64,000 nt of DNA from an uncultured Planctomycetota bacterium (lineage in GTDB: Bacteria > Planctomycetota > Planctomycetia > Gemmatales > Gemmataceae). A model generated the notes under the pieces. It searched no databases. It saw only the letters and a list, made by a program, of their open reading frames with translations, and was not told where the DNA came from. Shown piece by piece: positions 481-56,257 of this stretch. How positions within the stretch are numbered: the stretch's first letter is position 1; every line of letters starts with the position of its first letter. The stretch covers positions 136,853 to 200,852 of the forward strand of contig CAWATZ010000006.1 of NCBI GenBank assembly GCA_963784995.1. The letters are read 5' to 3'. Position numbers and translations under genes: made by a program.

Positions 481-3006
481 TCAACGCCGGAACACGCCCA
501 GCAGGTTGGAAAACTCATCGGTCCACGTGCCGATCTCCGGTCGGGGCCGCAGAGTCCGCCACCGCGAATCCCGCGCCAGGTCCAGGCCGGCCGAGGGGCG
601 GGCCAGGACCACGAAAGTCGAGCGGGTCTTGCCGCGTTTGTCCTCCCCCTCGACGTCCGTGTCATACTGGACCCAGCCGGTCAACCCGGCCTGCTCGGCC
701 TGGTTGGCCAGCACCGGTTCGAGATCCAGATAGCGGTTAGAGACGTTATACACCAACCAGCCCCCCGGCTTCAACTTTTCCAGGTACAGTTTCAGAGCGT
801 CGAAGGTGATCAGATGGATCGGCACCGAATCGGAGCTGAAAGCGTCCAGGAACAGCAGATCGAACGAGTGATCCGGGGCTTCCTGAATCTGTAATCGAGC
901 ATCACCCAGGACCAGGTGCAAGTCCACGCCGCGGGCCCGGCAATCGGCCAGGTAGGTGAAGAAACGCGGGTTGTCGGCCAGCCGGACCACGGCCGGATCG
1001 ATCTCCCAGAAGGTCCACGCCTGGCCGGCCCTGGCATAACTGGCCATCGAGCCGATGCCCAGGCCGGCGACGCCGACCGTTCGCGGCGGGCTCACCTGGT
1101 TGCGCAGGGCAAAGAGCTGGCCGACCGGCCCGGTGCGATGGAAGTAGGTCAGCGGCTCGTCGCGGCGGGCGGGGTCGAGGCTCTGCCAGCCGTGCAGGGT
1201 GGTGCCGTGCAGCAGCCAGCGATACTCCCCGGTCGAATCCTGCTGCACGCACAGCTGGCCGTAGAAGCTGCGTTCGCGCCGCTCGACGTGGTCGCGCAGG
1301 TCGGCGGCGATCCCCGCGGCCAGCAGGACCGCACCGACCGCCAGGCCAAAGCGAACCGGCCGGCCGATCAGGGCAAAGCAAATGCCCACCGGCAAACCCA
1401 CCGCCCACAGCCAGAGGACCCAGGCCAGCAAGTCCTCGTTTTCCCGACCGAGAACGTCCATTTCCAGCTGATTGACGCGCAGGGCCCAGGCGATGATCCC
1501 GGTCAGCAAGCCCAGGGAAACCGGCGCCAGGAAGTCCGCGAGAGCAGGACGGGCTTCCCAGCCCGTCTCAAGGCCGTGGACACCTCGCCACTGGGAAGCC
1601 CGTCCTGCTCTCGCGGACTTCCCCGGGCAAACCAGGCAGGCGACCGTCAGGCCCAGCGGATATTCCAGTGTCCGGGTGAACACCAGCGGCGCCAGCAGGA
1701 CCACCAGCAGTCCGCCCACGACGCCACCCGCCGACATCCACAGGAAATACGCGGTCAGGTGGCGTGGGCCTGGCCGCTGCCGGGCCAGCTCGCCGTGGCA
1801 GACCAGGGCGATCAGGAAGAAGACGGCCAGGTGCAGTTCGATCTCGACGAGCAACGGGGCGCGCAGCCGGAGGACCATGAGGTAAACCAGGACCAGGACC
1901 AGGAGCGGCATCAGTCGGACCGCCCAGAAATGCAGCGAGGCGGCGAAGCGCACGTAGACCAGGATGAAACTGAGCAGGTACAACCCCAGGGGCAACACCC
2001 AGAGCAAGGGAATCGCAGCCACGTCTGTCGTGATGTGGGCCGTCACCGCAGGGAGCAGGGCGGCTGGAACCAGGCTGAGGAGCAGCCAGGAACGAATCGT
2101 GGACCAGGGGAAACGGGCGGGGGGAGGTGCCGAAGGAGCTGGCCGAGCCCCAGGGCGATGCCCGCAACACCCAGGGCGATGCCCTGGGCTATCCTGTTGC
2201 GCCGCTTCGGGGCGAAGACCGGCCTCTCTTTGCCCCGAAGGGGCGCAACAGGATAGCCCAGGGCATCGCCCTGGGTGACCTTGGGGCTCTTGGGTCTCTG
2301 TTCTTCTTGGTCCCTTCCCCCGGATTCCGACCGCCCAGCAGGCCCCAACCAGGAGCAGCAGCACGCCGTAACCCAAGGCCCAGAGCAGCGCTTGCTCGCT
2401 CCGGGTCAGGTTGGGTTCCAGCAGCAGCGGATAGGCGAGCAGGGCCAGCAAGCTGCCGGCGTTGCTGGCGGAATAGAGGAAATACGGATCGCCGGAGTCG
2501 GGATGGCCCGTGCTGGCAAACCAGCGCTGCAGCAGCGGCGCGGTGGTGCTGACCACCGTGAACGGGAGCAGGACCGTGACGGCCAGCAGGGCCAGCAGCC
2601 AGGGCAGCGGGGAGGTGTCGCACGGCGGCAGCCAACCCGCCGGCAGGGCGATGGGCAGGACCAGCAGCGGCAGTGGCAGCAGCACCAGATGCAAAAGCGC
2701 TTGCCGGCGCACTCCGAGCCAGGAAGTGCTGGCGTGAGCGTAGGCATACCCGGCCAGCAGTGCGGCCTGGTAGAATACCATGCAGGTGTTCCAGACGGCC
2801 GGCGATCCCCCCAGCAGCGGCAGCACCAGCCGGGCGAACAGCGGCTGGAGTGTGAAGAGCAGCGTGCTGCTGACAAAGAGCGTCATCGCGTACAGAACCG
2901 GAACCAGGACGTAGCCGGGGCCAGGACGCGACGGGTTCCGGGAGAGTGCGGTTTGCATGATTGGCCTCGGGGCCGGTTTCTTCGCGTTGTGGAACAACCT
3001 CGACAA
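481..3006 (-). CDS. polyamine aminopropyltransferase (spermidine synthase)-like C-terminal domain fused to a large N-terminal polytopic membrane domain
   Basis: 841 aa ORF. The C-terminal third (VGVAGLGIGSMASY...FLDAFSSDSVPIHLITFDALKLYLEKLKPGGWLVYNV) matches the spermidine synthase/SAM-MTase fold. The N-terminal half has many hydrophobic helices. The start may instead be the internal Met at 2958. Two palindromic insertions are read through in-frame (see repeats). Confidence 0.75.
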   Translation of the reverse strand: MSRLFHNAKKPAPRPIMQTALSRNPSRPGPGYVLVPVLYAMTLFVSSTLLFTLQPLFARLVLPLLGGSPAVWNTCMVFYQAALLAGYAYAHASTSWLGVRRQALLHLVLLPLPLLVLPIALPAGWLPPCDTSPLPWLLALLAVTVLLPFTVVSTTAPLLQRWFASTGHPDSGDPYFLYSASNAGSLLALLAYPLLLEPNLTRSEQALLWALGYGVLLLLVGACWAVGIRGKGPRRTETQEPQGHPGRCPGLSCCAPSGQREAGLRPEAAQQDSPGHRPGCCGHRPGARPAPSAPPPARFPWSTIRSWLLLSLVPAALLPAVTAHITTDVAAIPLLWVLPLGLYLLSFILVYVRFAASLHFWAVRLMPLLVLVLVYLMVLRLRAPLLVEIELHLAVFFLIALVCHGELARQRPGPRHLTAYFLWMSAGGVVGGLLVVLLAPLVFTRTLEYPLGLTVACLVCPGKSARAGRASQWRGVHGLETGWEARPALADFLAPVSLGLLTGIIAWALRVNQLEMDVLGRENEDLLAWVLWLWAVGLPVGICFALIGRPVRFGLAVGAVLLAAGIAADLRDHVERRERSFYGQLCVQQDSTGEYRWLLHGTTLHGWQSLDPARRDEPLTYFHRTGPVGQLFALRNQVSPPRTVGVAGLGIGSMASYARAGQAWTFWEIDPAVVRLADNPRFFTYLADCRARGVDLHLVLGDARLQIQEAPDHSFDLLFLDAFSSDSVPIHLITFDALKLYLEKLKPGGWLVYNVSNRYLDLEPVLANQAEQAGLTGWVQYDTDVEGEDKRGKTRSTFVVLARPSAGLDLARDSRWRTLRPRPEIGTWTDEFSNLLGVFRR
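1530..1622. repeat. intragenic hairpin element: 32-nt perfect inverted repeat, 28-nt loop, 93 nt total (31 codons), in-frame inside the 481..3006 CDS
   Basis: Arm 1 is ggaagtccgcgagagcaggacgggcttcccag at 1530-1561. Its exact reverse complement ctgggaagcccgtcctgctctcgcggacttcc is at 1591-1622. Confidence 0.85.
2148..2275. repeat. intragenic hairpin element: roughly 44-nt near-perfect inverted repeat plus a partial direct repeat of cccagggcgatgcc, inside the 481..3006 CDS
   Basis: cccagggcgatgccctgggctatcctgttgcgccgcttcggggc (2170-2213) pairs with gccccgaaggggcgcaacaggatagcccagggcatcgccctggg (2232-2275). The extra cccagggcgatgcc copy is at 2148-2161. Confidence 0.85.
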
Positions 3007-3049: not shown

Positions 3050-4588
3050 ATGCGATCCTTCGCCTGGCTCGTGTTGCCGCTGCTCGCCTGGCCGCTCTGC
3101 TCGGTCCCGACACAGGACCAGGCGCGCCGGCCGGTCGATCATCAGGCCATCGACGCGCTGGTGCGCAAGGCGCAGCAGGAGTGGCAGGTCCCCGGCGTCG
3201 CCGTGGGCATTGTCCGCAAGGGCGAGGTCGTTTATCTCAAGGGCCACGGACTGCGCTCGCTGGCCACGCGGGAACCGGTCACGCCCGATACGCTCTTTCC
3301 GATCGCCTCCTGCACCAAGGCCTTCACCACCACCCTGCTGGCCCAGCTGGTCGGCGAGGGCAAACTCTCCTGGGACGATCCGCCGCGCAAATACGTCCCC
3401 GCATTCCGGCTGAGCGATCCGCTGGCGGATCGGGCAGTCACCTTGCGGGACCTGCTGTGTCATCGGACCGGCCTGGCCGGCCACGATTGGTTGTGGCACC
3501 ACGCCCCGTGGTCGCTCCAGGAGAGCATCCGCCGGGCCGGTCTCCTGCCGCTGGACCGGCCGCTGCGCTCGGCCTTCCAGTACCAGAGCACCATGTTCAC
3601 CGTGGCCGGCTTCGCGGCCGCGAAAGTCGGCGGAGCAGAGTGGGACGAGCTGGTCCGCCGGCGACTGCTGCAGCCGCTGGGCATGAAGGATACGGTCTGC
3701 ACTTCCCGCGAGGCCCGGCGAGCGGCGCGGCGTGAGCCCGCCGGTGGCGAACTGGCGGCCGGCCATCACTATAACGAGCAGGGTGTGGTCGAGGGGATGG
3801 ACGGCTTTTTCATGGAAAACCCCGACCCGGCCGGCTCGATCCACTCCTCGGCCCGCGACCTGTGCCGCTGGCTGCAGTTTCACCTGGACGAGGGCAAGGT
3901 TGCGGGCCGGTCTCTTGTCGCCGCCCGTGCCCTGGCCGAGACGCACACCCCGCAAATGGTCATTCCCCTGACCGGGCTGACCCGCCGGATCCACTCCGAG
4001 ACGGTGCAGATGAGCTACGGCATGGGCTGGGTGATCCACGATTACCGCGGCAAGCTGCTCTGGTCGCACGCCGGGGCCATCGACGGCTACCGGGCTCACC
4101 TCACCCTGGTCCCGAGTGAGGGCCTCGGTCTGGTGCTGCTCAACAACTTGCATCAGACGCAGATGAACCAGGCCCTGTGCAATGGCTTGCTCGACCTGCT
4201 GCTGGACCTGCAGGGGGAGAAGAAGGACTGGAACGCTTACCTGTTCGAGCTGCGCCGGGCCGAAAGTATCCGGATTGCCGAGGAGGCCCGGCAGCGTGAG
4301 AGGCAGCGGCAGCTGGACTCGCAACCGTCCCGACCGCTGGCCGACTATGCGGGCGAGTACGAACATCCCGCGTTCGGGAGCGTGACCATCGCGCTGGAAG
4401 GAGGAACGCTGATCTGGTCGTGGCGGCGGACGCGCTCGGTGCTGGAACACTGGCACTTCAATACGTTTGTTCCGCACCATCCGCTGCTGGACGGGCTGCA
4501 AGTCCAGTTTCAGCTGGACCGTGCCGGGCGAGTGGCCGGTCTGCGGCTGGAAGGGCCGGAACACCTGGAGCTGACGAGAAGGCGGTGA
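3050..4588 (+). CDS. serine hydrolase, beta-lactamase / penicillin-binding-protein family (class C-like), secreted
   Basis: SxxK motif (ASCTKAF). Start chosen at MRSFAWLVLPLLAWPLCS (signal peptide) with gggaga RBS. The ORF-track start at 2957 overlaps the upstream gene. Confidence 0.8.
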   Translation: MRSFAWLVLPLLAWPLCSVPTQDQARRPVDHQAIDALVRKAQQEWQVPGVAVGIVRKGEVVYLKGHGLRSLATREPVTPDTLFPIASCTKAFTTTLLAQLVGEGKLSWDDPPRKYVPAFRLSDPLADRAVTLRDLLCHRTGLAGHDWLWHHAPWSLQESIRRAGLLPLDRPLRSAFQYQSTMFTVAGFAAAKVGGAEWDELVRRRLLQPLGMKDTVCTSREARRAARREPAGGELAAGHHYNEQGVVEGMDGFFMENPDPAGSIHSSARDLCRWLQFHLDEGKVAGRSLVAARALAETHTPQMVIPLTGLTRRIHSETVQMSYGMGWVIHDYRGKLLWSHAGAIDGYRAHLTLVPSEGLGLVLLNNLHQTQMNQALCNGLLDLLLDLQGEKKDWNAYLFELRRAESIRIAEEARQRERQRQLDSQPSRPLADYAGEYEHPAFGSVTIALEGGTLIWSWRRTRSVLEHWHFNTFVPHHPLLDGLQVQFQLDRAGRVAGLRLEGPEHLELTRRR

Positions 4589-5914
4589 CCATCCCATTCC
4601 CCGGGAGTTCGTGAGCTAAGATTATTTCAGGCCGGACAAGAAACAGGCCAGAGAAGAAACCGCTTCGAGATCTCGGGGGAGGGGAAGGCCACGATGGGCA
4701 AGAGGCTGACGGCGACGTTCCTGGTAGCGCTGGTGTTGCTGCTGGGCAATGCGCTGGTGTCCTTCTGGAACGTCACCCGGGTGGTGGACCACGATCACCG
4801 GGTCGCGCACACCCACGAGGTCCTTGCCCAGTTGCGAGGGATCACGTCCGCCCTGTACGACGCCGAGGCCGGCCTGAGCAGCCATTTCCTGATGGGACGG
4901 GCCGAATCCCTCCGCCCCTGCGAGTTTGCCTTTGAGCGCGTGCCGGAGGCGCTGGCGAACCTGGAAAGCATGACGGCCGACAATCGGCGCAGCAGCAGCG
5001 CGTCCGCCGGCTCGGCCCTCTGATCCAGGAGCAGTTCGCGTTGATGCGGCAAATGATTGCTTTGCGCGCGAACCGCGGCCAGGGAGGCCGGGAGGCCCTG
5101 GCCCTGCGCGGACCGGGAAGGCGCAGACCCTCTCGCAAGAGATCCGCAGGCTGCTGGCCATGATGGAAGACGAGGAGAACCAGTTGCTGCGCCAGCGCGT
5201 TCCGCAGGCCCGGACCAGCACCCGGCTGACGTTCTTGACTTTGCTTGCCGCCACCATCCTGGGAGTCGCCCTGCTGGGCTTCGTCGCCCTGCTGACCTGG
5301 CGCGGCATCCACGATCGCCGGCGCGCCGAGGAGGAGCTGCGCCGCGGCCGGGACGAACTGGAGGTCCGGGTCGGAGAGCGCACGCTGGAACTGGCGTCGG
5401 CCAACGTGCGGCTGCTGCGGGAAATCGAGGAGCGCCGCCGGGCCGAGCTGGCCCTGCGAGAAGCCAAGGAAACCGCCGAGGCGGCCAGTCGGGTCAAGAG
5501 CGAGTTCCTGGCCAGCATGAGTCATGAGATCCGCACGCCCATGAACGGCATTCTCGGCATGGTGGAAGTGCTGCTGGATACGGACATCACGGTTGAGCAA
5601 CGCGAGCACCTCGCCATGATCCAGACTTCCGCGGAAGCCCTGCTGGCGATGATCGACGACCTGCTGGATTTCGCGAAGATTGAGGCGGGCAAGGTTGACC
5701 TCGACCCGATCGCCTTCCATCTCCGCGAGACCCTGGGCGATACCCTGAAACTGCTGGAAGTGCGCGCCGCAAGAAGGGACTCTGTCTGGCCTGCCGCATT
5801 CAGCCGGACGTTCCCGAAACCCTGGTGGGCGACGCTGGCCGGCTCCGCCAGGTCCTCATCAACCTGGTGGGCAACGCCATCAAGTTCACCGAGAGGGGCG
5901 AAGTGTTCGTGGTC

Positions 5915-5972
5915 GCAGGACAGGCAGCCTTGCCTGTCCTGGGCGTTGGGACAGGCAAGGCTGCCTGTCCTG
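5915..5972. repeat. intragenic double hairpin (ggacaggcagccttgcctgtcc and its reverse complement ggacaggcaaggctgcctgtcc) in-frame in the histidine kinase
   Basis: Direct reading of 5915-5972. Encodes [21 protein letters not shown], between the N-box and G1 box of the HATPase domain. Confidence 0.8.
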
Positions 5973-6220
5973 CGGGAGTGGAGCTCCATTTTGCCGTCTG
6001 CGACACGGGCATTGGCATCCCGACCGACCGGCAGCGCGTGATCTTCGACCCGTTCACCCAGGCCGACGGCTCGGTGACGCGCCGCTACGGCGGCACCGGA
6101 CTGGGCCTGTCCATCTCCTCGCGCCTGGTCGAACTGATGGGAGGTCGGATCTGGGTGGAAAGCGAAGTGGGCCAGGGCAGCACTTTCCACTTCACCGCGT
6201 GCTTTGCTCGGTGCCCCTCG

Positions 6221-6348
6221 GAAGATGACAAGGTGACAAGGTGGCAAGGTGACAAGGTGACAAAGACCGAAGAGCCAGAACTGGGGGCTTCCTCCGCGGC
6301 TTCTTCTGTCACCTTGTCACCTTGTCACCTTGTCACCTTATCATCTTC
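6221..6348. repeat. intragenic 128-nt palindrome built from 8-mer tandem repeats (gacaaggt x5 on one arm, accttgtc x4 on the other), in-frame between the HATPase and receiver domains
   Basis: gaagatgacaaggtgacaaggtggcaaggtgacaaggtgacaaag ... tctgtcaccttgtcaccttgtcaccttgtcaccttatcatcttc. Encodes EDDKVTRWQGDKVTKTEEPELGASSAASSVTLSPCHLVTLSSSD. Confidence 0.85.
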
Positions 6349-7430
6349 AGACGGGCTGCGAATCCTGGTCGCGGAAGATAACGCGATCAATCAGGTGGTG
6401 GCCCGGCAAATGCTGGAGAAGCAAGGCCATCAGGTCGAAGTGGCCAGCAACGGCAAGGAGGCCCTGGCCGCACTGGAACGGCAATCCTTCGATCTGGTGC
6501 TGATGGACGTGCAGATGCCGGAAATGAGCGGCTTCGACGTGACCGCCGCCATCCGGGCCCGGGAGAATGGGAGCGGGCGGCGCCAGCCGATCATCGCCCT
6601 GACCGCCCATGCCATGAAGGGCGACCGGGAGCGGTGTCTGGAAGCGGGCATGGACGGCTACCTCTCCAAGCCGATCCAGGCGTGCGAACTCTCCCGGGCC
6701 ATTGCCCTGGTGGTCGGCGGGAAGCAGCAAGTCCCCGGGAGTGCCAGGCCGGTTCGCCCTGACCCGGCAGCTGACGCAGCCGGGCACCCGCTTGCGGGTC
6801 TGCCACCGGCCGGGCGGAACACCCACGTCCTGGACCGCGCCGCCACTCTGGAGCGCTACCGTGGCGACCTCTCCTTTGTCCAGACCCTCGCGTCCCTGCT
6901 TGTCGAGGAGTCTCTCCGCTCCCTGGCGGAGATGCGGGATGCCCTCCGGGGTAAGGAAGCCGACCGGTTGGGGCAGGTGGCGCACAAGTTCGTCGGCGCC
7001 GTGAGCAGCTTCGTCGCCCCGGAGGCAACCGAGGCGGTCCGGCAACTCGAAGCCCGGGCCAAGGCGGGAGACTTGCCAGAGGCGGGCCAGGCGCTGGCAA
7101 CCTTGGAAGTAACCCTGGCCCGGCTGACCGCTGCCCTGGGTGAGCTGCAACAAGGGCCCGAACGCGTTGGCGCGGGCTGAGTTCGAGGACCACTCCTGTC
7201 GATGAACTGGAGTCGGCGGCACAGGAGTCCCACCTGACAGCCGAGCAGTTGCAACGGCTCTATGAAACGGTGTGCGGTGAATCGGAGACTGGAGCCGCAG
7301 GCGATCAGAGGGATAGCACACTTCGTCTCCGCCCGATGTTGCTGGAGATCCTGGTGCGATTGTTCGGCAAGGCTCCCGGCAGTGACCAACGCCAGGGACA
7401 GTCGTGACGTGCAGTCAGCGGAGAGTTTCA

Positions 7431-11380: not shown

Positions 11381-11412
11381 GCGATCCTCGCAAAACAGTC
11401 CGGACCAGAGCC

Positions 11413-11496
11413 GACGAGCCGCCGCTTCGATTTATCGTTTCGCGTTCGGCCACAAGTCGGCGAACGCGAAACGATAAATCGAAGCGGCGGCTCGTC
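11413..11496. repeat. REP-like intergenic palindrome, family 1 (core cgatttatcgtttcgcgttcg...cgaacgcgaaacgataaatcg), copy 1 of 3
   Basis: 36-nt perfect arms gacgagccgccgcttcgatttatcgtttcgcgttcg / cgaacgcgaaacgataaatcgaagcggcggctcgtc. Related copies at 45914..45962 and 56171..56257. Confidence 0.9.
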
Positions 11497-11501
11497 GGAC
11501 A

Positions 11502-15160: not shown

Positions 15161-15359
15161 GAACACCTCAACAGATTTACGACCCCTCCAGCCCTGGCTG
15201 GCCGTGCAGGCACGGTTGTCCGGCAGGTGAAGGAGGTCACCAGCTAGAGGAAGAAGCAAGAACTTTTTTTCTTTTCTCCCGTCTAGCCAATGACCTGCTT
15301 CACCTGCCGGACAACCGTGCCTGCACGGCCAGCCAGGGCTGCTGGGGCCGGAGAAGCGG

Positions 15360-18452: not shown

Positions 18453-18506
18453 CGGGCCGACGGCCGCGCACAGCGCCATGCGGCGGAGCGTGCGGCCGTC
18501 GGCCCG
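18453..18506 (+). terminator. GC-rich hairpin (16-18 bp stem) about 50 nt downstream of the 17095..18402 gene
   Basis: cgggccgacggccgcgca ... tgcggccgtcggcccg. Confidence 0.45.
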
Positions 18507-19023
18507 GAAGCAACAAGAAATCCGAGGGATTCGGTGCCAGGTGAGCCCCAGAAAAGAGTTGCCGCACGCAGGGTTTTCCTGTCGAACCAAACACAAGCTC
18601 CCACCAATCGCCCCCCGCCATGAAAAGCTTGCCGCGCCTGCTTCTTACTTTCAACACTCCGGTGAGAGCCCTCTGCGAGGCCGGTGGAAGAAGAGATCGG
18701 AACACTAATCCACGCTGATCCCCACTAATCGGAATGCGGGTCTCCTGCCTTCAATTAGCGAAGATTAGCGCAGATCAGTGTTCCTGCGCTACCGGCCCCG
18801 CGGAGGGGTGGCCTCCCGTGACCGTCAGCGGGGCTGAAACAGCCTTCCCTGGAATGCATCGGACAGATTCGCTTGCCTGCTTTTGTTGCCCCTGAGCGGG
18901 GCGATCGGTCTGTGACACAAGAGGTATCAGGTCGAGCAGATCCGGATCTGTGGAAGGGGCGGTCGGGCAACCGCCGCCCCGACCCGGCATGTCGATACCA
19001 GCTGCAGCCCCTCACTTCGCGGC

Positions 19024-19048
19024 CCCTCTCCCACAAGGGGAGAGGGGA
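19024..19048 (-). terminator. CCCCTCTCCC-loop-GGGAGAGGGG hairpin immediately downstream of the Gfo/Idh/MocA gene stop (motif recurs at 45866 and 45984)
   Basis: cccctctcccacaaggggagagggg begins 11 nt 3' of the TAA at 19061..19059. Confidence 0.45.
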
Positions 19049-19058
19049 GGAAAGCCCG

Positions 19059-30687: not shown

Positions 30688-30776
30688 GGCCGAGCCGCGC
30701 ACGCAGCGCAGCGGAGTAAGCGGTGCGGGAGCCTGCAGGGCCGCTTACTCCGCTGCGCTGCGTGCGCGGCTCGGCC
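30688..30776. repeat. 36-bp perfect inverted repeat (ggccgagccgcgcacgcagcgcagcggagtaagcgg / ccgcttactccgctgcgctgcgtgcgcggctcggcc) with 17-nt loop, between the kinase gene and the MVP gene
   Basis: Direct reading. Possible terminator/insulator or REP-like element. Confidence 0.8.
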
Positions 30777-30879
30777 TTTCTTCTCCGGCGCAGGCCGGGG
30801 ACACAGCAGAAAGCCCACGCATGTCCTGCGTTCCCATACTGTCTCCTTTCTCTCTCCCCAACAACTGGAGGAAGTTCCA

Positions 30880-45834: not shown

Positions 45835-45859
45835 GGTCCTGTCTCCGTTTCGGGCTTTC

Positions 45860-46010
45860 TTTCTCCCCTCTCCCCTTGAGGGAGAGGGGGTGGGGTGAGG
45901 GGAAGAGCCTGGCTGATTTATCGTTTCGCACTGATCCAGGTGAGCGCGAAACGATAAATCGAAGACAACCCTTCACCCCCAAACCCTCTCCCTCAAGGGG
46001 AGAGGGGAGA
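45860..46010. repeat. composite nested palindrome: CCCTCTCCC hairpin, family-1 REP core (tgatttatcgtttcgcac...gcgcgaaacgataaatcga), CCCTCTCCC hairpin
   Basis: 45866-45890 cccctctccccttgagggagagggg; 45914-45962 REP core; 45984-46007 ccctctccctcaaggggagaggg. Lies between the paralogue-3 stop and the paralogue-2 start. Confidence 0.85.
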
Positions 46011-46020
46011 AGGATCTCCG

Positions 46021-48859
46021 TCACTTCTGCGGCGGCAGCGGCACCCGGAACGTCTCCCCCTTGATGGTCAAGGTCCCCTGCCCCGCTGGACCTTTGTCGC
46101 CGCCGGCCAGCCGATAGCCGACCGGCTGGCCAGTGGCGCGGTCAATGGGCACCGCCGGGAGAATGTTCGGCGTCAACTCCTCCAGCGTCCGGGCCGGCCG
46201 ACCGGCCTCCACCTGGAAAAGCCGCAGAGCGACCATCAATTCCCGGGCCTGCACCCGGGTCGTGTCCTGGAGAGAGGCGTAGCTGTTCTGGGATTGGTAA
46301 CCCGGAAACAGCAACTTGCGCGTCAGCGGCGGCGGCAAGGGATGAGCCACGGCCCCCTCGTTCGCCAGTTGGCGGATCAGCCGCTGCAGCCGGGCCTCCT
46401 CCCACGGCGTCTTCCAGGACGCTGCCGTCAGCCCGGCCAGCAGGTTGCCGTCCGCGTGCTGGGAACGCAAGACCCTGCACGCCCACGAATCCGGGCCGCC
46501 CGCCACCTTCACCGCGTTCATCGCCACCAGGTAATCGGCACGCAGGGCGTTGTCTCCTTCCTTCACTGTCGCCTGCTCGTGCCGGCGCAGCAGCTCCAGG
46601 GCCCGGCGAAGCAGATCGGGCCGGCCGTCCAGACGTTCCAGCCAGCGCTCCACGCCGCGCAGCAGGTCCAGTTCCGCGGACACGGCATGGGGATAGAGGG
46701 GTGACGGCTCCAGATGGCGAACCTGCCGCACCAATGCCAGCCCCGTCTCCAGGTGTTCGAGAAACGCAGCCGGGTCGCCCCGGGCTTGCAACTGCAAGTC
46801 CTCGGGCCACCAGCACCTGGGCCACCGAGGGTGCGAGTTCGATTGCCAGCGCCGGCGTTGGAATCAGCTGATCCTTCGGACTCATGCCCTGCACGTCCTC
46901 GACCACGCCGAGCGGTCGGCGCACTGTTTCCCCTAACTGCCCGCACCACGGCAGACGGAAGAACTCATCCAGCCAGCGGGACAACCACTCCTCCTTGGCC
47001 GGCCAGCCATCGGCGGGAATCTTCAGCCTCTCCAGCTCGCTCCACCCATCCCCCCATCCCTCCCGCTGCAGCCTGGGGACCTGGTTCAGAGCGGTACGGA
47101 GGCGAATCCCCGTCTCGGTTTTGCGCGCGTCCTCCAGAGATTGCTCAAAGCCGGCCAGGTCCAGCCGGTCTTCCACCGAGGGCACCTCAAGGACACGGTA
47201 GGCGAGCGATCCGACAAACCACAGGAGCGCCAGGGTCAGCCCCGAGGCCAGCCGCACCACAGCTGTGCGTGAGCCAAGCCGGCCGGTCGCCCACGGCCAG
47301 ACCAGCAGCCGCACCGTCAGCAACAGCAGGATCGGCAGGCCCCAGTATTGCCAGGCGTGCAAGCCGCCGACGACCAGCGAGGGAACCCACAGCAGAAGGA
47401 ACAGCAGCGACGCGGCCACGGCGATGGCCCCGGCGATCACCGGCTTGCGGAAGAGCAGGCCGCACAGGCAGCCGATGCTGAAACCATGCACCAGCCCCAC
47501 GGTCAGGTACGGTCCCAGTTGCAGATACGGGGCCAGCAGGTGGAGCTGCGTCGGGGCTGCGTCGAAAGCGCCGAATTCCAGCACCTCCCGGATCGCGACC
47601 CAGACCGCAGCCGGGAGGAGCATCAGCTGGACACAGGCCAGCCCCAGGGCCAGGCGGGCGCCGACCTTGAAGGCCCAGATTCGGCCCAGCGGCAGCCGTT
47701 GCTCGGCCAGAAAGCGCTCGGTGGCCTGGACCTGTTCGCCAGCGAAGACGCTGACCCCGGCGATCACGCCCAGCAGCAGCGTCAGCACCGGCCAGCCCAG
47801 CACCCACCACAAGGGCACGCAGCCCCCGACCAGGGCGGCACCCCCAGCCACAGGAACAGCATCCCGGACTGCCGCATCTCCAGCCAGCACACCGCGGCCA
47901 GCTGCGAACGCCAGGCCGGCAGCGGCGTTGCGGCGGCGGCCGGGCCCTTTTCCGGCGTTGAGGAAGCAGGCGTTTCCTCGCTCCGTTCCTTCTCTCTGGC
48001 GGGCCTATTTGCTGGCCGTCGCGAATCCTCTTGCCTTGCTCTTCGCGGCCGAGCCCGCCAGGGACCTGCCTCCGGGTCTTCCGGCTCGGGCCATTCGTCA
48101 AGGAGACTCGGTGCCGGCCGCTCGAACCGGGGAAGGGGTGGAGGAGAATCCTGCTCGCGACTCCTGCCGAGCCACGGGCACGCGCTGATCGAGCCAGACG
48201 TGGAACACACCGGAAGCGATGATTGGCGCCACGATCAGCAGCAGGCCAAGCACCAGGAAGACCGTTCGCCGGATCGCCAGGAGTTGCTCGTCCGACAGGC
48301 TTCCGGGCGTTGCTTGCTGCACGTCGGTTCCGATCACGTAAATGAGGCCGTCCAGCCAGAACAGCGGCAGCACCGCGACCAGCTGTCCCCCGATCCCGGC
48401 GAAGATGGCCCCCATCGCGGTTTGCATTCGAGCCGAGAAGAACAGGCCCCAGGCAAAGCCCAGCAGCGCCGCGCCCAGCATCACCAGCAGAAACCACAGT
48501 CCCCAGGGCCAATCGCGCATGACCTCGGACAGCAGCAGATACCACAGGAACAGCACCTGCGTCAGGATCAGGAGAACGCCCGCCGTGCATTTCACCCACC
48601 AGACCGATACCCGCCTGACCGGCAAGGATTCCAGGAAAGCCGCCGTCCCTCCCTCCCTTTCCCCGGCCAGCAGGATGGCCCCGACCACCAGCCCGTAGAC
48701 GTAGGCAAACGAACCGAAGAGAGTGCTCAAGGTGTCCCGCGGCAGGTCGCGCTCCATGATGGTCACGCGGAGCAGCACGGCACCGGCCGCCAGCACCGCA
48801 ATGGCCAGCCAGACCCAGCGCTGCTCCCGGTACACCTTCCACACCAGCACCCCGGTCAT
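46021..48859 (-). pseudogene. paralogue 3 of the double ABC-2 permease fusion family, disrupted by at least three frameshifts
   Basis: N-terminus 48859..48098 (MTGVLVWKVYREQRWVWLAIAVLAAG...LLAGEREGGTAAFLESLPVRRV). Second permease domain in frame 46142..47890 (GWPVLTLLLGVIAGVSVFAGEQVQATERFLAEQRLPLGRIW). C-terminal domain in frame 46021..46797 (MQLQARGDPAAFLEHLETGLALVRQ...VPLPPQK). A 1-bp length difference relative to paralogue 2 in ...gcaagtcctcgggccaccag. Confidence 0.7.
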
Positions 48860-49806
48860 GGGACTTCCTCCCGGTTGCTTTCCGTCAGGTCGGACCCCAG
48901 CAGTGAGCCATTCGCGGACGGCTGCGGCCGCTGCTGACCCAGCAAAGCCGTGTACATCTCCTCCAGGTCGAGCGGCTTTTCCTCCACCTCGCTGACGCCG
49001 TCGCTGCTCGCCAGCTGGACCAGGGCGTCCGGGTCCGGATCGAGCAGCACCAGCTCCATCTGCCGGCCCAGCTGCTCGGTTTGCAGCAGCGTGCCCAGCC
49101 CGCTGGGATCGAAGGCCGTCTCACAGCGCATCCGCACCCGCACAAAGCGCTGCCGGACTTCATCCAGCAGCCCCGCCAGCAGCAGCTTGCCGTTGGAGAG
49201 GAAGGCGACGTGGCTGGCGACCCGCTCCACCTCGGCCACCGCATGGCTGGAGATCAGGATGGTCCGCCCGGCCCCGGCCTGCTCGACCATGCCGGCCAGG
49301 AACTCCTTGCGCGTGAACAGGTCCAGGCCCGAGGTCGGCTCATCGAGAATCAGCACCTCGGGATCGATCGCCAGGGCCAGGGCCAGGCCGACCTTGGCAT
49401 AGCCGCCCTTGGACAGGTCGCGCAGCCGGGCGCCGCGCTCCAGGCCCAGACGCTCGGCGATCCCCTGAAAACGCGATCGGTACGCCGGCTTGTGAAAGCC
49501 GCCGACGAACCAGCCGATCTCATCGACCGTCATCCAGTCGTAGAACTTCGGCCGTTCCGGGACGTAACCGATGCGCTGCCGCAGCTCCAGGGCGTCGCGC
49601 CAGCAATCCTTGCCAAGCACCTCGGCCCGGCCGCCGTCGGCCGGCAGCTGACCGGTGAGGATGCGGATGGTGGTCGATTTGCCCGCTCCGTTGTCTCCCA
49701 GAAGAGCGCAGATGGCCCCCGAGGAGACGGTCAGATCCAGGCCCTGCACGGCGACCTTGCGGCCGAAACGCTTTCGCAGATGGTGAATGTTGATGACCGC
49801 GCTCAC
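48856..49806 (-). CDS. ABC transporter ATP-binding protein (ABC-2/DrrA-type)
   Basis: Walker A GDNGAGKSTTIRIL, signature LSKGGYAKVGLALAL, Walker B ILDEPTSGLD. The stop overlaps the paralogue-3 start. The start overlaps the gntR stop. Confidence 0.85.
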   Translation of the reverse strand: MSAVINIHHLRKRFGRKVAVQGLDLTVSSGAICALLGDNGAGKSTTIRILTGQLPADGGRAEVLGKDCWRDALELRQRIGYVPERPKFYDWMTVDEIGWFVGGFHKPAYRSRFQGIAERLGLERGARLRDLSKGGYAKVGLALALAIDPEVLILDEPTSGLDLFTRKEFLAGMVEQAGAGRTILISSHAVAEVERVASHVAFLSNGKLLLAGLLDEVRQRFVRVRMRCETAFDPSGLGTLLQTEQLGRQMELVLLDPDPDALVQLASSDGVSEVEEKPLDLEEMYTALLGQQRPQPSANGSLLGSDLTESNREEVP

Positions 49807-50195
49807 TGATGTTTCCTCCCGTTGACCCGGGCCAGTTCGTCTTCGACCAGCCGCAGGATCTCAGCCGGCGACAGGGCGCTCTCCACCGCCTCCCGCAAGG
49901 CGGCCCGGATGCGCCCCTGAACGATGTGCTTGCGTCGCGCCTGACACAGCTCCGGAGCCCTGGGCGTCACTTCCATCCCCTTGCCGCGCACCACCGATAC
50001 CAGCCCCTGCCGCTCCAGCTCCTGGACCGCCCGGGCCGCCGTGTTGGGATGCACCAGCAGCCGCTGAGCCAGGTCGCGCACGCTGGGGATCATCGTCCCC
50101 GGAGTCAGTCCGCCCGAGGCAATGGCGAAGATGACCTGCGTGACGATCTGCTCGTAGACCGGGACGTTGCTGTCCTTTTCAATGGAAATCAGCAT
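49803..50195 (-). CDS. GntR-family (YtrA-like short) transcriptional regulator
   Basis: 130 aa: PVYEQIVTQVIFAIASGGLTPGTMIPSVRDLAQRLLVHPNTAARAVQELERQGLVSVVRGKG, a winged HTH. First gene of the minus-strand operon. Confidence 0.85.
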   Translation of the reverse strand: MLISIEKDSNVPVYEQIVTQVIFAIASGGLTPGTMIPSVRDLAQRLLVHPNTAARAVQELERQGLVSVVRGKGMEVTPRAPELCQARRKHIVQGRIRAALREAVESALSPAEILRLVEDELARVNGRKHQ

Positions 50196-50398
50196 GCTGG
50201 CACCAATCCCCGGTTTTCCGCACTGAAGCCAGGCAAGGGCAATAAGAACACCGACCCGGGGTGGAAGTGTACCAGGTCCACGTTACACTAGGACGGTGGG
50301 TGCGGCAAGAGGCAATCCGGGGCAGATCAGCGAAAAAAGTTGACTGAGGAAGTTGCGCGGCCCTGTTTTTTGTTTTTGAACTGCCTTGCTTCGTTCGA

Positions 50399-50559
50399 CT
50401 TTTGCCGATTTGGAGTGCGGCAGTAGCTTTGCTCTGCCGCTTTTGTTTCTTCTGTTGGTTTTTGTTTCTTGGACTGGCCTAACAAGGGAAAAGCAAAAAC
50501 AAAAGACCAAACAAAAGCGGCAGAGCAAAGCTACTGCCGCACTCCATAATCGGCAAAAG
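50399..50559. promoter_or_regulatory. AT-rich 160-bp nested palindrome (about 47-bp near-perfect outer stem, each arm containing its own gcggcag...ctgccgc hairpin), 200-360 bp upstream of the gntR operon start
   Basis: tttgccgatttggagtgcggcagtagctttgctctgccgcttttgtt pairs with aacaaaagcggcagagcaaagctactgccgcactccataatcggcaaa. Local GC is far below the window average, with ttttgtttt runs. Confidence 0.45.
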
Positions 50560-50585
50560 TGGAGCTTAGGGTGTTGTGTCTTCTG

Positions 50586-50879
50586 TTACCGCACCACGTG
50601 AAACCCCGTGAACTGTCCCGTCGCCGGCCGTTCCTCGATCTTCTCCTCATCGACGTAGTTCCGCATCCGCTGCCGCACTTCCTGGAGAAAGCGCTGCACT
50701 TCCGGCTCAGCTCCCTCCACCAGCAGCTGCACCCGTCCATCGGAGAGATTGCGCACCCAGCCGGTCACGTTGTGGCCGTGCGCGATCGAAACCGCCGTCG
50801 CCCGGAAGCCGACACCCTGAACCATCCCGGAGTAATACACCATCCGGGCCGTCCGGCCGCTGCCGCTCTCCGCGCTCAT
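50586..50879 (-). CDS. acyP: acylphosphatase
   Basis: VQGVGFRATA...GWVRNLSDGRVQLLVEGAEPEVQRFL, the classic acylphosphatase signatures. Confidence 0.85.
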   Translation of the reverse strand: MSAESGSGRTARMVYYSGMVQGVGFRATAVSIAHGHNVTGWVRNLSDGRVQLLVEGAEPEVQRFLQEVRQRMRNYVDEEKIEERPATGQFTGFHVVR

Positions 50880-50965: not shown

Positions 50966-52438
50966 TCAGCGCCGCCGTGCCGTGAAGTACAGCTTGCCTC
51001 CGAAGCGCGTCAATCCCGCCGGCGCGGCCCCCCGTGGGCCCGTGCTGATGCGGGTGACCATTTCGGTGCCGTTCGCACTTCCGGTGGTACTCCAGAGTTG
51101 ATCGCCGTTGATCCCATCGTCAGCCACGAAATACAGCTTGTCGCGGAAGACGATCAGGTGGGTCGGGCTGGAAGAATGCGTGCGTGTGCGGTCCGTGGTC
51201 TCGACGTCCTTCTCGGTGTTGACGTCCAGGGCCATCTCGGTGCCGGCCGCGCTGCCGGTGGTGCTCCACAGTTCCACTCCATGAACGCCGTCGTCGGCCG
51301 AGAAATAGAGCTTGCCGTTGAACACCGTCAGGTGGGAGGGGTTTGACGACAGGGTGCGGTTGCTTTCCTTGTTCCTGGGGTCCGCCTTCGCCTTGTTGAG
51401 GTCCAGGACCATCTCGGTGCCGTTCCCTGACCCGGTCGTCCGCCACAGCTCGATTCCGTGAACGCCGTCGTTGGCCGTGAAGTACAGCTGGCCGTTGAAG
51501 ACGATCAGTTCGGCCGGTTCGGCCCCGCGTGGGCCCTTGCCGATCAGCCGGACGATCTCCGTGCCGTTGCCGCTGCCGGTTGTGCTCCACAGTTGCACAC
51601 CACTGAGCCCATCGTCGGCCGTGAAATAGAGCTTGCCGTCGAACACCGTTAGATTGCGGACACTGCCACCCCTGGCTCCGCGTCCGATCAGACAGACCAT
51701 CTCGGTGCCGTTCCGGTGCCCGGTGGTGCTCCACAGCTGCACTCCGTTGACCCCGTCGTCGGCCGTGAAATAGAGCTTGCCGTTGAACACCGTCAGGTTG
51801 GCGGGATTGGAAGAGCGCGTGCGATTGCTCTTCCTGTCCTCGGGGTTGACTCTGACCTCGTCAAGGTCCAGGACCATCTCGGTGCCGGCCGCGCTGCCGG
51901 TGGTGCTCCACAGTTCCACCCCATGAACGCCATCGTCGGCCGTGAAATAGAGCTTGCCGTTGAACCCCGTTAGATTGCCGACGTTGACCCCTTTGGGTCC
52001 GCGTCCGATCAGACAGACCATCTCGGTGCCGTTGCCGCTGCCGGTTGTGCTCCACATCTGCACCCCGTTGACCCCGTCGTCGGCCGTGAAATAGAGCTTG
52101 CCGCTGAACACCGTCAAGTTACTGGGATTGGAGGAGAGTGTCCGTTTCTGGGCCGCGTCGTCGGCTTCCTTCTCGGTGTTGACGTCCAGCACCATTTCGG
52201 TATCGTTCCCATCCCCGGCGGTGCTCCACAGTTCCACCCCATGCTCGCCATCGTCGGCGGTGAAATAGAGCTTACCGGCGAAAACAACCAGGTCAGGAGG
52301 GGTGGGAAGGCTGAACTTGACGTGACCTGGCTGGATCAGGGCGGTGCCGTTCCAGCTGCCGGTGGTGCTCCACAGTTCGGCACCCAGGACGGCGGCTGCC
52401 ACCAGGAAGAGAGCCGGAAACAGGAGAAGCCACTTCAT
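50966..52438 (-). CDS. secreted ELWxxDGT-repeat protein (about 10 repeats)
   Basis: Signal peptide MKWLLLFPALFLVAAAVLGA. Ten units of ...GKLYFTADDGVHGVELWSTTGSxxGTEMV... . Confidence 0.8.
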   Translation of the reverse strand: MKWLLLFPALFLVAAAVLGAELWSTTGSWNGTALIQPGHVKFSLPTPPDLVVFAGKLYFTADDGEHGVELWSTAGDGNDTEMVLDVNTEKEADDAAQKRTLSSNPSNLTVFSGKLYFTADDGVNGVQMWSTTGSGNGTEMVCLIGRGPKGVNVGNLTGFNGKLYFTADDGVHGVELWSTTGSAAGTEMVLDLDEVRVNPEDRKSNRTRSSNPANLTVFNGKLYFTADDGVNGVQLWSTTGHRNGTEMVCLIGRGARGGSVRNLTVFDGKLYFTADDGLSGVQLWSTTGSGNGTEIVRLIGKGPRGAEPAELIVFNGQLYFTANDGVHGIELWRTTGSGNGTEMVLDLNKAKADPRNKESNRTLSSNPSHLTVFNGKLYFSADDGVHGVELWSTTGSAAGTEMALDVNTEKDVETTDRTRTHSSSPTHLIVFRDKLYFVADDGINGDQLWSTTGSANGTEMVTRISTGPRGAAPAGLTRFGGKLYFTARRR

Positions 52439-54422: not shown

Positions 54423-54500
54423 GAAATGGCGAGCGGCGCGGCGTCAGCCCGCCGGTAAGGGCTTCCTACCGGCGGGCTGACGCCGCGCCGCTCGCCATTC
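54423..54500. repeat. family-3 palindrome (about 37-bp arms, gaaatggcgagcggcgcggcgtcagcccgccggtaagg / ccttaccggcgggctgacgccgcgccgctcgccatt); degenerate relative at 36863..36966
   Basis: Direct reading. Shares ggcgagcggcRcggcgtcagcccgc with the 36863 copy. Confidence 0.8.
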
Positions 54501-56170: not shown

Positions 56171-56257
56171 GACGAGCCGCCTCTTCGATTTATCGTTTCG
56201 CGTTCGCCCACAAACCAGTGAACGCGAAACGCTAAATCAAATGCCCGCCGCTCGTCG
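56171..56257. repeat. REP-like palindrome, family 1, copy 3 (right arm partly degenerate)
   Basis: gacgagccgcctcttcgatttatcgtttcgcgttcg...gaacgcgaaacgctaaatcaaatgcccgccgctcgtcg. Confidence 0.85.

Follow-up and report, generated by a model that had tools for sequence, protein, structure and literature searches.

Introduction

The intergenic region between acyP and gntR in an uncultured Planctomycetota bacterium contains an AT-rich palindrome of 169 bp, and its size and position raise the question of whether it regulates one of its neighbours, encodes an RNA of its own, or belongs to a repeat that also occurs at unrelated loci. A first-pass annotation of this DNA had described the structure and had proposed three readings: a gene for a small RNA, a MITE, or a regulatory site of complex design in which the motifs of the internal hairpins could be half-sites for the adjacent GntR regulator.

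Several kinds of bacterial repeat offer a frame for such an element. In Neisseria, the Correia elements and the inverted pairs of DNA uptake sequences are dispersed intergenic repeats (about 100-150 bp) or motif pairs which double as terminators, the former being associated with TA duplications and IHF sites and the latter being linked to natural transformation. We know of no such traits here, nor of any sequence relationship between our element and either of these. A second group is that of the extragenic palindromic repeats which attract target-specific insertion sequences (ISs), namely REP, BIME and REPIN (PMC3116915, PMC2817692, PMC1525189). The REPIN is composed of two inverted REPs and a spacer, which together form a hairpin (PMC3116915); the known REP super-families carry, beside one end of their stem-loop, a defining tetranucleotide, GTAG or CGTC (PMC3733652), and their copy number is usually above 100 per genome (PMC2817692). 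The ISs that target REPs, in turn, keep almost exclusively to a single family of extragenic palindromes (PMC1525189).

In this work we describe the anatomy of the palindrome and of its surroundings in the window (the whole stretch of 64,000 nucleotides analysed), follow its copies into metagenome contigs (designated L001, L117 and so on), and weigh the proposals above against the reading that it is a dispersed repeat acting as a bidirectional transcription terminator.

Results

Anatomy of the palindromic doublet

The repeat finder, direct reading of the sequence and the z-scores of the folds all agree that the palindrome is real. The extent first given (50399-50559) does lie within it, the true span being slightly wider (Table 1): a pair of outer arms of 16 nt (50395-50410 and 50548-50563, 94% complementary) adjoins inverted arms of 57 nt (50411-50467 and 50490-50546, 89% complementary), both as delimited by the repeat finder. 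By direct reading the near-perfect outer stem has 50 bp (about 47 bp had been reported) and the single bulge already described, an A in the right arm (GATT-TGGAG versus GATTATGGAG). Beyond these 50 bp, imperfect pairing continues across the T/A-rich inner parts, up to an apical loop of about 10 nt. The predicted folding energy is -123 kcal/mol for the minus strand (z = -11.5) and -138 kcal/mol for the plus strand (z = -13.4), and none of 200 shuffled sequences folded as well. The drop in GC content noted in the first-pass annotation is also present, with 43-49% at the palindrome against 65.5% for the window.

The palindrome is best described as a doublet of two inverted units. From outside to inside, each unit (about 50-75 nt in its basic form, with the 48-nt core TTGGAGTGCGGCAGTAGCTTTGCTCTGCCGCTTTTGTTTCTTCTGTT) comprises a 5' TTTGGAGT motif, a GC-rich hairpin, and a TTTTGTTT tail followed by more T-rich sequence. 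The GCGGCAG-N10-CTGCCGC hairpin previously seen inside each arm is indeed there, and a pattern search returned three matches to it, with 0.15 expected by chance.

Table 1. Coordinates of the features discussed, numbered from the first letter of the window.
Feature	Position	Strand	Description
ABC-2 permease	48098-48859	-	Pfam match; in operon with gntR
ABC ATPase	48856-49806	-	Pfam match; in operon with gntR
gntR	49803-50195	-	Small (130 aa) GntR-family regulator; Pfam GntR, 6.3e-14
Conserved inverted repeat	50267-50288	-	GTGTAAC-N8-GGTACAC, 22 bp; overlaps TAGTGT -10-like hexamer
T-rich run outside doublet	50364-50378	+	TGTTTTTTGTTTTTG; repeat families D1, I4; weak hairpin and T-tract
Whole palindromic doublet	50395-50563	.	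Two inverted repeat units, tail to tail
Left unit	50395-50472	+	Outer part TCGACTTTTGCCGA, 5' motif TTTGGAGT, hairpin, left-type T-rich tail
Left terminator-type hairpin	50417-50440	+	GCGGCAG-TAGCTTTGCT-CTGCCGC: 7 bp, bulge, 3 bp, UUU loop
Left-unit T-rich tail	50441-50472	+	TTTTGTTTCTTCTGTTGGTTTTTGTTTCTTGG
Predicted plus-strand termination zone	50441-50448	+	Within left-unit tail
Central spacer	50473-50485	.	Apical loop of the long hairpin (folds)
Right unit	50486-50563	-	On the minus strand: TCCACTTTTGCCGATTATGGAGT, hairpin, then TTTTGTTTGGTCTTTTGTTTTTGCTTTTCCC
Predicted acyP 3' end	~50516-50509	-	U-tract of right unit
Right terminator-type hairpin	50517-50540	-	Pattern match and fold
acyP (acylphosphatase)	50586-50879	-	Pfam PF00708 Acylphosphatase, 1.4e-21
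Further palindromes (ten), part 1	1530-1622, 2168-2277, 5914-5974, 6208-6361, 11411-11498		Arms 25-69 nt, 84-100% complementary
Further palindromes (ten), part 2	15180-15350, 18453-18506, 30688-30776, 45858-46014, 54425-54499		Arms 25-69 nt, 84-100% complementary

T-rich runs flank the doublet on both sides, as had been reported; the repeat finder places the second one at 50574-50587. The run on the gntR side is perhaps the tail of a decayed third unit, and the two outer runs may be leftovers of further decayed units of a BIME-like array. The run at 50574-50587 (TTGTGTCTTCTGTT) is 93% like the left-type tail and overlaps the stop codon of acyP.

The palindrome and the neighbouring genes

The genes on both sides (acyP, gntR, the ABC ATPase and the ABC-2 permease) are all on the minus strand, and within the gntR-ABC operon the stop and start codons overlap. 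The context given in the first-pass annotation is correct: the doublet lies 22 nt past the acyP stop codon and 200 nt ahead of the gntR ATG. The right unit is the first one that transcription out of acyP meets, its hairpin beginning 45 nt past the stop codon, and for the plus-strand unit there is no obvious gene whose transcription would be terminated there. Upstream of acyP, also on the minus strand (50966-52438), a 490-aa protein is encoded which is made of repeats of about 60 aa (…GKLYFTADDGVHGVELWSTTGSxxGTEMV…), with only weak and scattered Pfam matches.

The proximity of the palindrome to gntR, together with the repetition of palindromic motifs within it, is what could make it a complex operator of the adjacent regulator, with TGCGGCAG/CTGCCGCA as half-sites. 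The orthologous loci argue against this. At the three gntR orthologue loci that we examined (four contigs: L113, L114, L115 and L116), where the gntR homologues are 73-84% identical, the gene upstream differs at every locus read and the palindrome is absent; the gntR-ABC arrangement is the same in L113 and L114. What is conserved upstream of gntR in L113, L114 and L116 is instead an inverted repeat, GTGTMAC-N8-GKNACAC, beside the -10-like hexamer TAGTGT, and this hexamer and a TTGaCa-like hexamer are likewise conserved. The pattern has one match in the window, with 0 expected by chance, located 72 nt ahead of the gntR ATG, with 107 nt separating it from the palindrome. The regulator itself has a winged-helix domain only and resembles the YtrA type; its best NCBIfam matches (PmtR and Rv1152, both below the cut-offs) are regulators which we take to be small members of that type. 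Judging from its conservation and position, this inverted repeat is likely the operator of a YtrA-type GntR. With the conserved promoter and operator placed there, the palindrome is located further upstream than the gntR promoter and does not serve as the operator. Additionally, the same hairpin motif is found in other assemblies beside unrelated genes and IS elements. With no counterpart at the three orthologous loci, the half-site proposal is not supported, and we give the operator explanation hardly any credence.

The same comparison bears on the proposal that the element encodes a small RNA, or acts in cis as a regulatory RNA of the gntR operon. Its predicted structure is very stable and it is intergenic, upstream of a regulator gene, as such an RNA could be. 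Nevertheless, being upstream of the conserved gntR promoter and operator, it is outside the gntR 5' UTR, it is absent at the orthologous loci, and its symmetry confers no strand preference. Furthermore, no promoter-like site was found, and the Rfam matches (E<=10, on both strands) are to long-hairpin models of eukaryotic miRNAs, all below the gathering thresholds, which we rejected as generic. A single unit in another contig (L118, described below) directly follows a stop codon in terminator orientation. The small-RNA option of the first-pass annotation is thus, in our view, highly improbable.

Terminator-like features of the units

Each unit has the anatomy of a canonical Rho-independent terminator. 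The GC-rich hairpin is stable (-16.6 kcal/mol for the 37-nt core of the unit), it is directly followed by UUUUGUUU, and in both units the TTTTGTTT tract (seven T in eight) adjoins the 3' side of the stem. A sense position after the end of a gene is found both at acyP and for the single unit of L118. When the window was scanned for T-tracts with a hairpin ahead, the two units were the cleanest of the few compact sites; a simple terminator scan missed both, because it allows loops of 3-8 nt only.

As in intrinsic terminators generally, we find here a GC-rich hairpin with a direct U-tract, just past a stop codon, and with action possible in both directions. Ordinary bidirectional terminators differ in having a single hairpin between an A-tract and a T-tract, whereas here two hairpins face each other with their tails inward. 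They are also locus-specific, while the present sequence is a repeat common to unrelated loci. The hairpin shape, on the other hand, is not peculiar to this element: GCGGCAG-N10-CTGCCGCTTTTG, which proved too generic a pattern for a scan of genome collections, found more than 111 ordinary-looking terminator sites among the matches listed, in many phyla and several of them bidirectional, which confirms that the GCGGCAG-N10 shape is a common generic terminator form.

The same scan returned a Nostoc locus unrelated to the palindrome (GCGGCAG-CAAGCGATCG-CTGCCGC, containing the octamer GCGATCGC), which occurs with identical flanks in many assemblies (L013, L022, L028, L030, L049, L054, L086, L091, L099, L106 and L110).

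Copies of the unit and of the doublet in other contigs

The core and the doublet recur in other metagenome contigs; the 64 kb window holds one doublet only. When metagenome contigs were scanned for an exact 29-mer, two were matched (L117 and L118), which have no DNA in common with the window except the unit, the core of 46-48 nt being 98-100% identical in these unrelated contexts. In L118 a single unit (1427-1474) is identical at 48 of 48 positions to window 50409-50456 and follows an unrelated gene in terminator (sense) orientation, 7 nt past the stop codon. In L117 there is, after a complete unit (45 of 46 positions identical), a second one that is truncated and adjoins the end of another mobile element.

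A homologous tail-to-tail doublet is present in L119 (1953-2059, 83% identity over 112 nt), downstream of an IS. With the window it shares the left-type tail (TTTTGTTTyTTCTGTT ... CTTTTGTTTCTTGG), which is common to L118, L117 and the left arm of L119, and also the right-type tail (TTTTGTTTGGTCTTTT...) of the right arm. The outer TTCGACTTT.G.CC is common to the left unit of the window and the left flank of L119, and the spacer of the window doublet differs in sequence from those of the other doublets.

Variants of the doublet were found in L121 (GCGGCGG-TGCTTCT-CCGCCGC, a second small hairpin, then TTTTGTTTC) and in L123 and L124 (TTTGGAGT-GCGGCGG-TCT-CCGCCGC-yTTCTTTCTTTGG). Between variants the sixth pair of the stem changes from A-T to G-C, with both sides altered and the hairpin kept, and the variant doublets again show T-rich tails and the tail-to-tail order. 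These tails are found in all variants despite a GC content of 58-67% in the contigs. Two limits apply to the comparison: variants V2 and V3 were reached via the flanks of ISs, so that their common 5' motif may partly mirror the target preference of the IS and not descent, and a short-read contig assembled from a multi-copy IS may join flanks that stem from different copies (those of L121 and L123 do not match).

Other searches gave no further copies, namely BLAST at low stringency with the unit as query, run on the window and the relatives' loci (L113-L116), BLAST of the doublet and its variants against L126-L129, a degenerate arm pattern in viral contigs (no exact match) and blastn of the doublet against phage and plasmid collections. 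Likewise, our search of the literature for planctomycete palindromic terminators found nothing specific.

The Logan contig L001 (924 bp) comes from the present locus and starts within the left hairpin, in its loop, and the end of L117 falls within a unit. Such breaks fit a repeat or palindrome that de Bruijn assemblers fail to cross.

Comparison with REP, BIME and REPIN

Based on these copies, the element falls in the class formed by REP, BIME and REPIN. Like them it is made of short extragenic palindromic units, occurring alone (L118) and in alternating, inverted and spaced doublets (window, L119, L121 and L123) which can form long hairpins; like REP/BIME it has distinct left and right unit types, comparable to the Y and Z REPs, and is a hot spot for the insertion of a target-specific IS. 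The arrangement of two inverted units and a spacer forming a hairpin is that of a REPIN, and the doublet is conserved whole in L119. It differs from the REP super-families in one defining trait (PMC3733652), the GTAG/CGTC tag: the 5' flank of the hairpin is TTTGGAGT and the 3' flank is the T-tail, GTAG being found only in the loop of V1 and absent from V2 and V3. Because this tag is missing, the element does not belong to the defined REP super-families. Typical REPs, moreover, are without a T-rich tail of their own, while the unit described here carries one and looks like a complete intrinsic terminator. The count of one doublet refers to the 64 kb of the window. The repeat family is described here as new, within a general class of bacterial repeat that is familiar.

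This likeness raises the possibility of a purely selfish REPIN-like doublet, which would be mobilised in the form of a single-stranded hairpin by a Y1 transposase of the RAYT type or by an unknown enzyme, devoid of host function at this locus and with an incidental resemblance to a terminator. The architecture agrees with the definition of the REPIN (PMC3116915), the doublet is inherited whole with distinct left and right arm types, a singlet exists (L118), and other palindrome families of the window are multi-copy as well. Against it stand the missing tetranucleotide beside the hairpin and the T-rich tails, kept in all three variants at 58-67% GC, for which an element that is only a hairpin has no need. 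Additionally, among the 40 window ORFs scanned with Pfam there is no Y1 or other transposase domain, although a RAYT gene, being usually single-copy, may well lie outside a 64 kb stretch. On balance we regard a purely selfish origin as unlikely, and favour a repeat of this class that also acts on transcription.

An insertion sequence that targets the unit

The ISs known to target REPs are members of the IS3 and IS110 families (ISPpu9, for instance, being of the IS110 family). The IS found beside the unit in L117 and L119-L125 (outside the window) is about 1.86 kb long and codes for two proteins, OrfA (about 130-150 aa; slippery site A6G) and OrfB (about 425 aa); neither has a Pfam or NCBIfam match, and OrfB has no sequence match in the PDB. 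Its homologues are found almost only on contigs of 1.8-2.3 kb, sizes which are the signature of a collapsed multi-copy IS. In the model of OrfB (pLDDT 88) the best matches are the catalytic folds of Hermes, P-element, RAG1 and retroviral integrase, and in the alignment D, D and E-x6-K are invariant; by this predicted fold and these residues, OrfB is a DDE transposase of a kind missing from current libraries.

The terminal inverted repeats (TIRs) of this IS have 27 nt (TGGCCWGGTGTCAAGTTGG..TTGAC, from eight copies read), and 14 of 15 ends, on eight contigs, adjoin GTGCGGCAG, GTGCGGCGG or the complement. Target duplications of 9 bp are seen in L119 (GTGCGGCAG on both sides) and in L124 (CCGCCGCAC on both sides), and correspond to GTGCGGCRG, which is the outer half of the hairpin stem. 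By its insertion sites, the IS recognises the unit as a discrete DNA target. Distant relatives (43% identity), on the long-read MAG contigs L126-L129, show clean 9-bp duplications at every copy. The insertion inside one family of palindromes, which here takes the form of ends adjoining the GTGCGGCRG stems with 9-bp duplications, is shared with IS1397, ISKpn1, ISPpu9, ISPpu10, ISPa11 and ISRm19/22 (PMC1525189); the present IS differs from these in its OrfA and OrfB without library matches, and in the Hermes/P-element-like fold predicted for OrfB.

The unit was also considered as a terminal repeat of this IS, which we rejected since in L119 and L124 the IS is inserted into the unit and has its own TIR, and as part of the IS630-family element of L118, rejected as well because the TIRs of that element end about 70 nt away and do not include the unit.

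These relationships decide how much remains of the MITE proposal, in its classical sense of an internally deleted derivative of a DDE IS moved in trans via its terminal inverted repeats. Long terminal inverted repeats, a size of 169 bp, an intergenic location, related copies elsewhere and IS elements adjoining some of them would all suit such an element, and the underlying idea of a repeated element came closest among the first proposals, given that the core and the doublet recur in unrelated contexts. As a classical MITE, however, it is a poor fit. At this site no direct repeat adjoins the ends of the doublet, where a displaced GCTT is all that was found, and of the two ISs compared neither has ends like its termini (TCGACTTTTGCC...), which are unlike both the IS630-type TIR of L118 and the TIR of the unclassified IS (TGGCCWGGTGTCAAG). 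The latter inserts into the unit, duplicating 9 bp of the stem, rather than carrying it, and in L118 the unit stands alone. We therefore consider a MITE very unlikely.

Other palindromes in the window

The window contains 11 long near-perfect palindromes including the doublet, most of them located from a few to about 70 nt past stop codons. The other ten (Table 1) are mostly GC-rich and without T-tails, and several have short hairpins nested in each arm. At least three palindrome families are repeated within the window. The first joins 11411-11498 to 56171-56257 (85% over 87 nt) and to the core of 45915-45964; in the second, 19008-19052 is similar to the outer arms of 45858-46014; in the third, 54425-54499 is similar to 3717-3745 and 36867-36909. 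Given the 11 palindromes and the multi-copy families, the doublet is one case of a genome-wide palindrome habit, from which it stands out as AT-rich and terminator-shaped. Since many of the others are GC-rich and without T-tails, palindrome formation may be a general property of the lineage, unrelated to termination. A suspected likeness between 45858-46014 and the targets of the IS relatives in L126-L129 was dropped, as BLAST gave nothing significant.

A perfect palindrome (30688-30776) overlaps the called start of a 799-aa ORF (30723-33122, plus strand), whose true start is probably downstream of it. With Pfam matches to MVP_shoulder (1.4e-43) and to the Vault, Vault_2 and Vault_3 repeats, this ORF is, by its domains, a bacterial homologue of the eukaryotic major vault protein. 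In L113, whose gntR is 75% identical to that of the window, an unrelated perfect palindrome with a stem of about 48 bp (~5830-5935; ccccgaaggggttgtattccacagcccagggtagccgc...) lies between the conserved operator and the start of gntR, a position different from that of the window element; by eye, it has the short motifs CCCCGAAGGGG and AGCCCAGGG in common with window 2168-2277.

Discussion

Taking together the anatomy of the units, their position after stop codons, the recurrence of unit and doublet, the absence at the gntR orthologues and the targeting by an IS, we consider it probable, by a fair distance short of certainty, that the doublet is a dispersed repeat of the REP/BIME/REPIN kind which acts as a bidirectional terminator. 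Its most likely role at this locus would be to end the acyP transcript and to insulate the gntR-ABC operon. That transcription would actually terminate here is something we infer from anatomy and position, and how the repeat spreads is likewise a matter of inference.

In the mechanism that we propose, because the units are inverted with their tails inward, a polymerase travelling on either strand would meet a hairpin and then a U-tract first. Minus-strand transcription coming from acyP would halt at the first unit, within its U-tract, leaving a transcript whose 3' end is protected by the hairpin, and the gntR-ABC operon would start from its own promoter/operator, about 110-130 nt beyond. Antisense transcription arriving from the opposite side would be halted by the second unit. 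For the long hairpin of about 170 nt to form, either read-through RNA or single-stranded DNA would be needed.

A broader reading, which joins the repeat to its IS and which we put forward as tentative, is that uncultured high-GC bacteria, perhaps planctomycete-like to judge by neighbouring domains, carry a family of self-contained, mobile bidirectional terminator cassettes that are at the same time the landing pad of a dedicated IS. The cassettes would be REPIN-like doublets without GTAG/CGTC tags, whose units are complete intrinsic terminators and whose mobiliser is unknown; the landing pad would be that of an unclassified DDE IS with OrfA and OrfB, a hAT/P-element-like fold and a 9-bp duplication, which homes into the outer half of the stem.

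Some practical consequences follow for annotation and assembly. The element should be labelled as a repeat or a terminator, and not as a GntR operator or an sRNA. Doublets of this kind break short-read assemblies, L001 and L117 both ending inside one. The doublet could also be used as a compact bidirectional terminator part, and the IS that targets the unit is a candidate sequence-specific insertion tool.

With this element the REP/BIME/REPIN class gains a family from high-GC bacteria that are uncultured and little studied, and the U-tract built into it would allow a direct test of how selfish palindromic repeats are linked to transcription termination.
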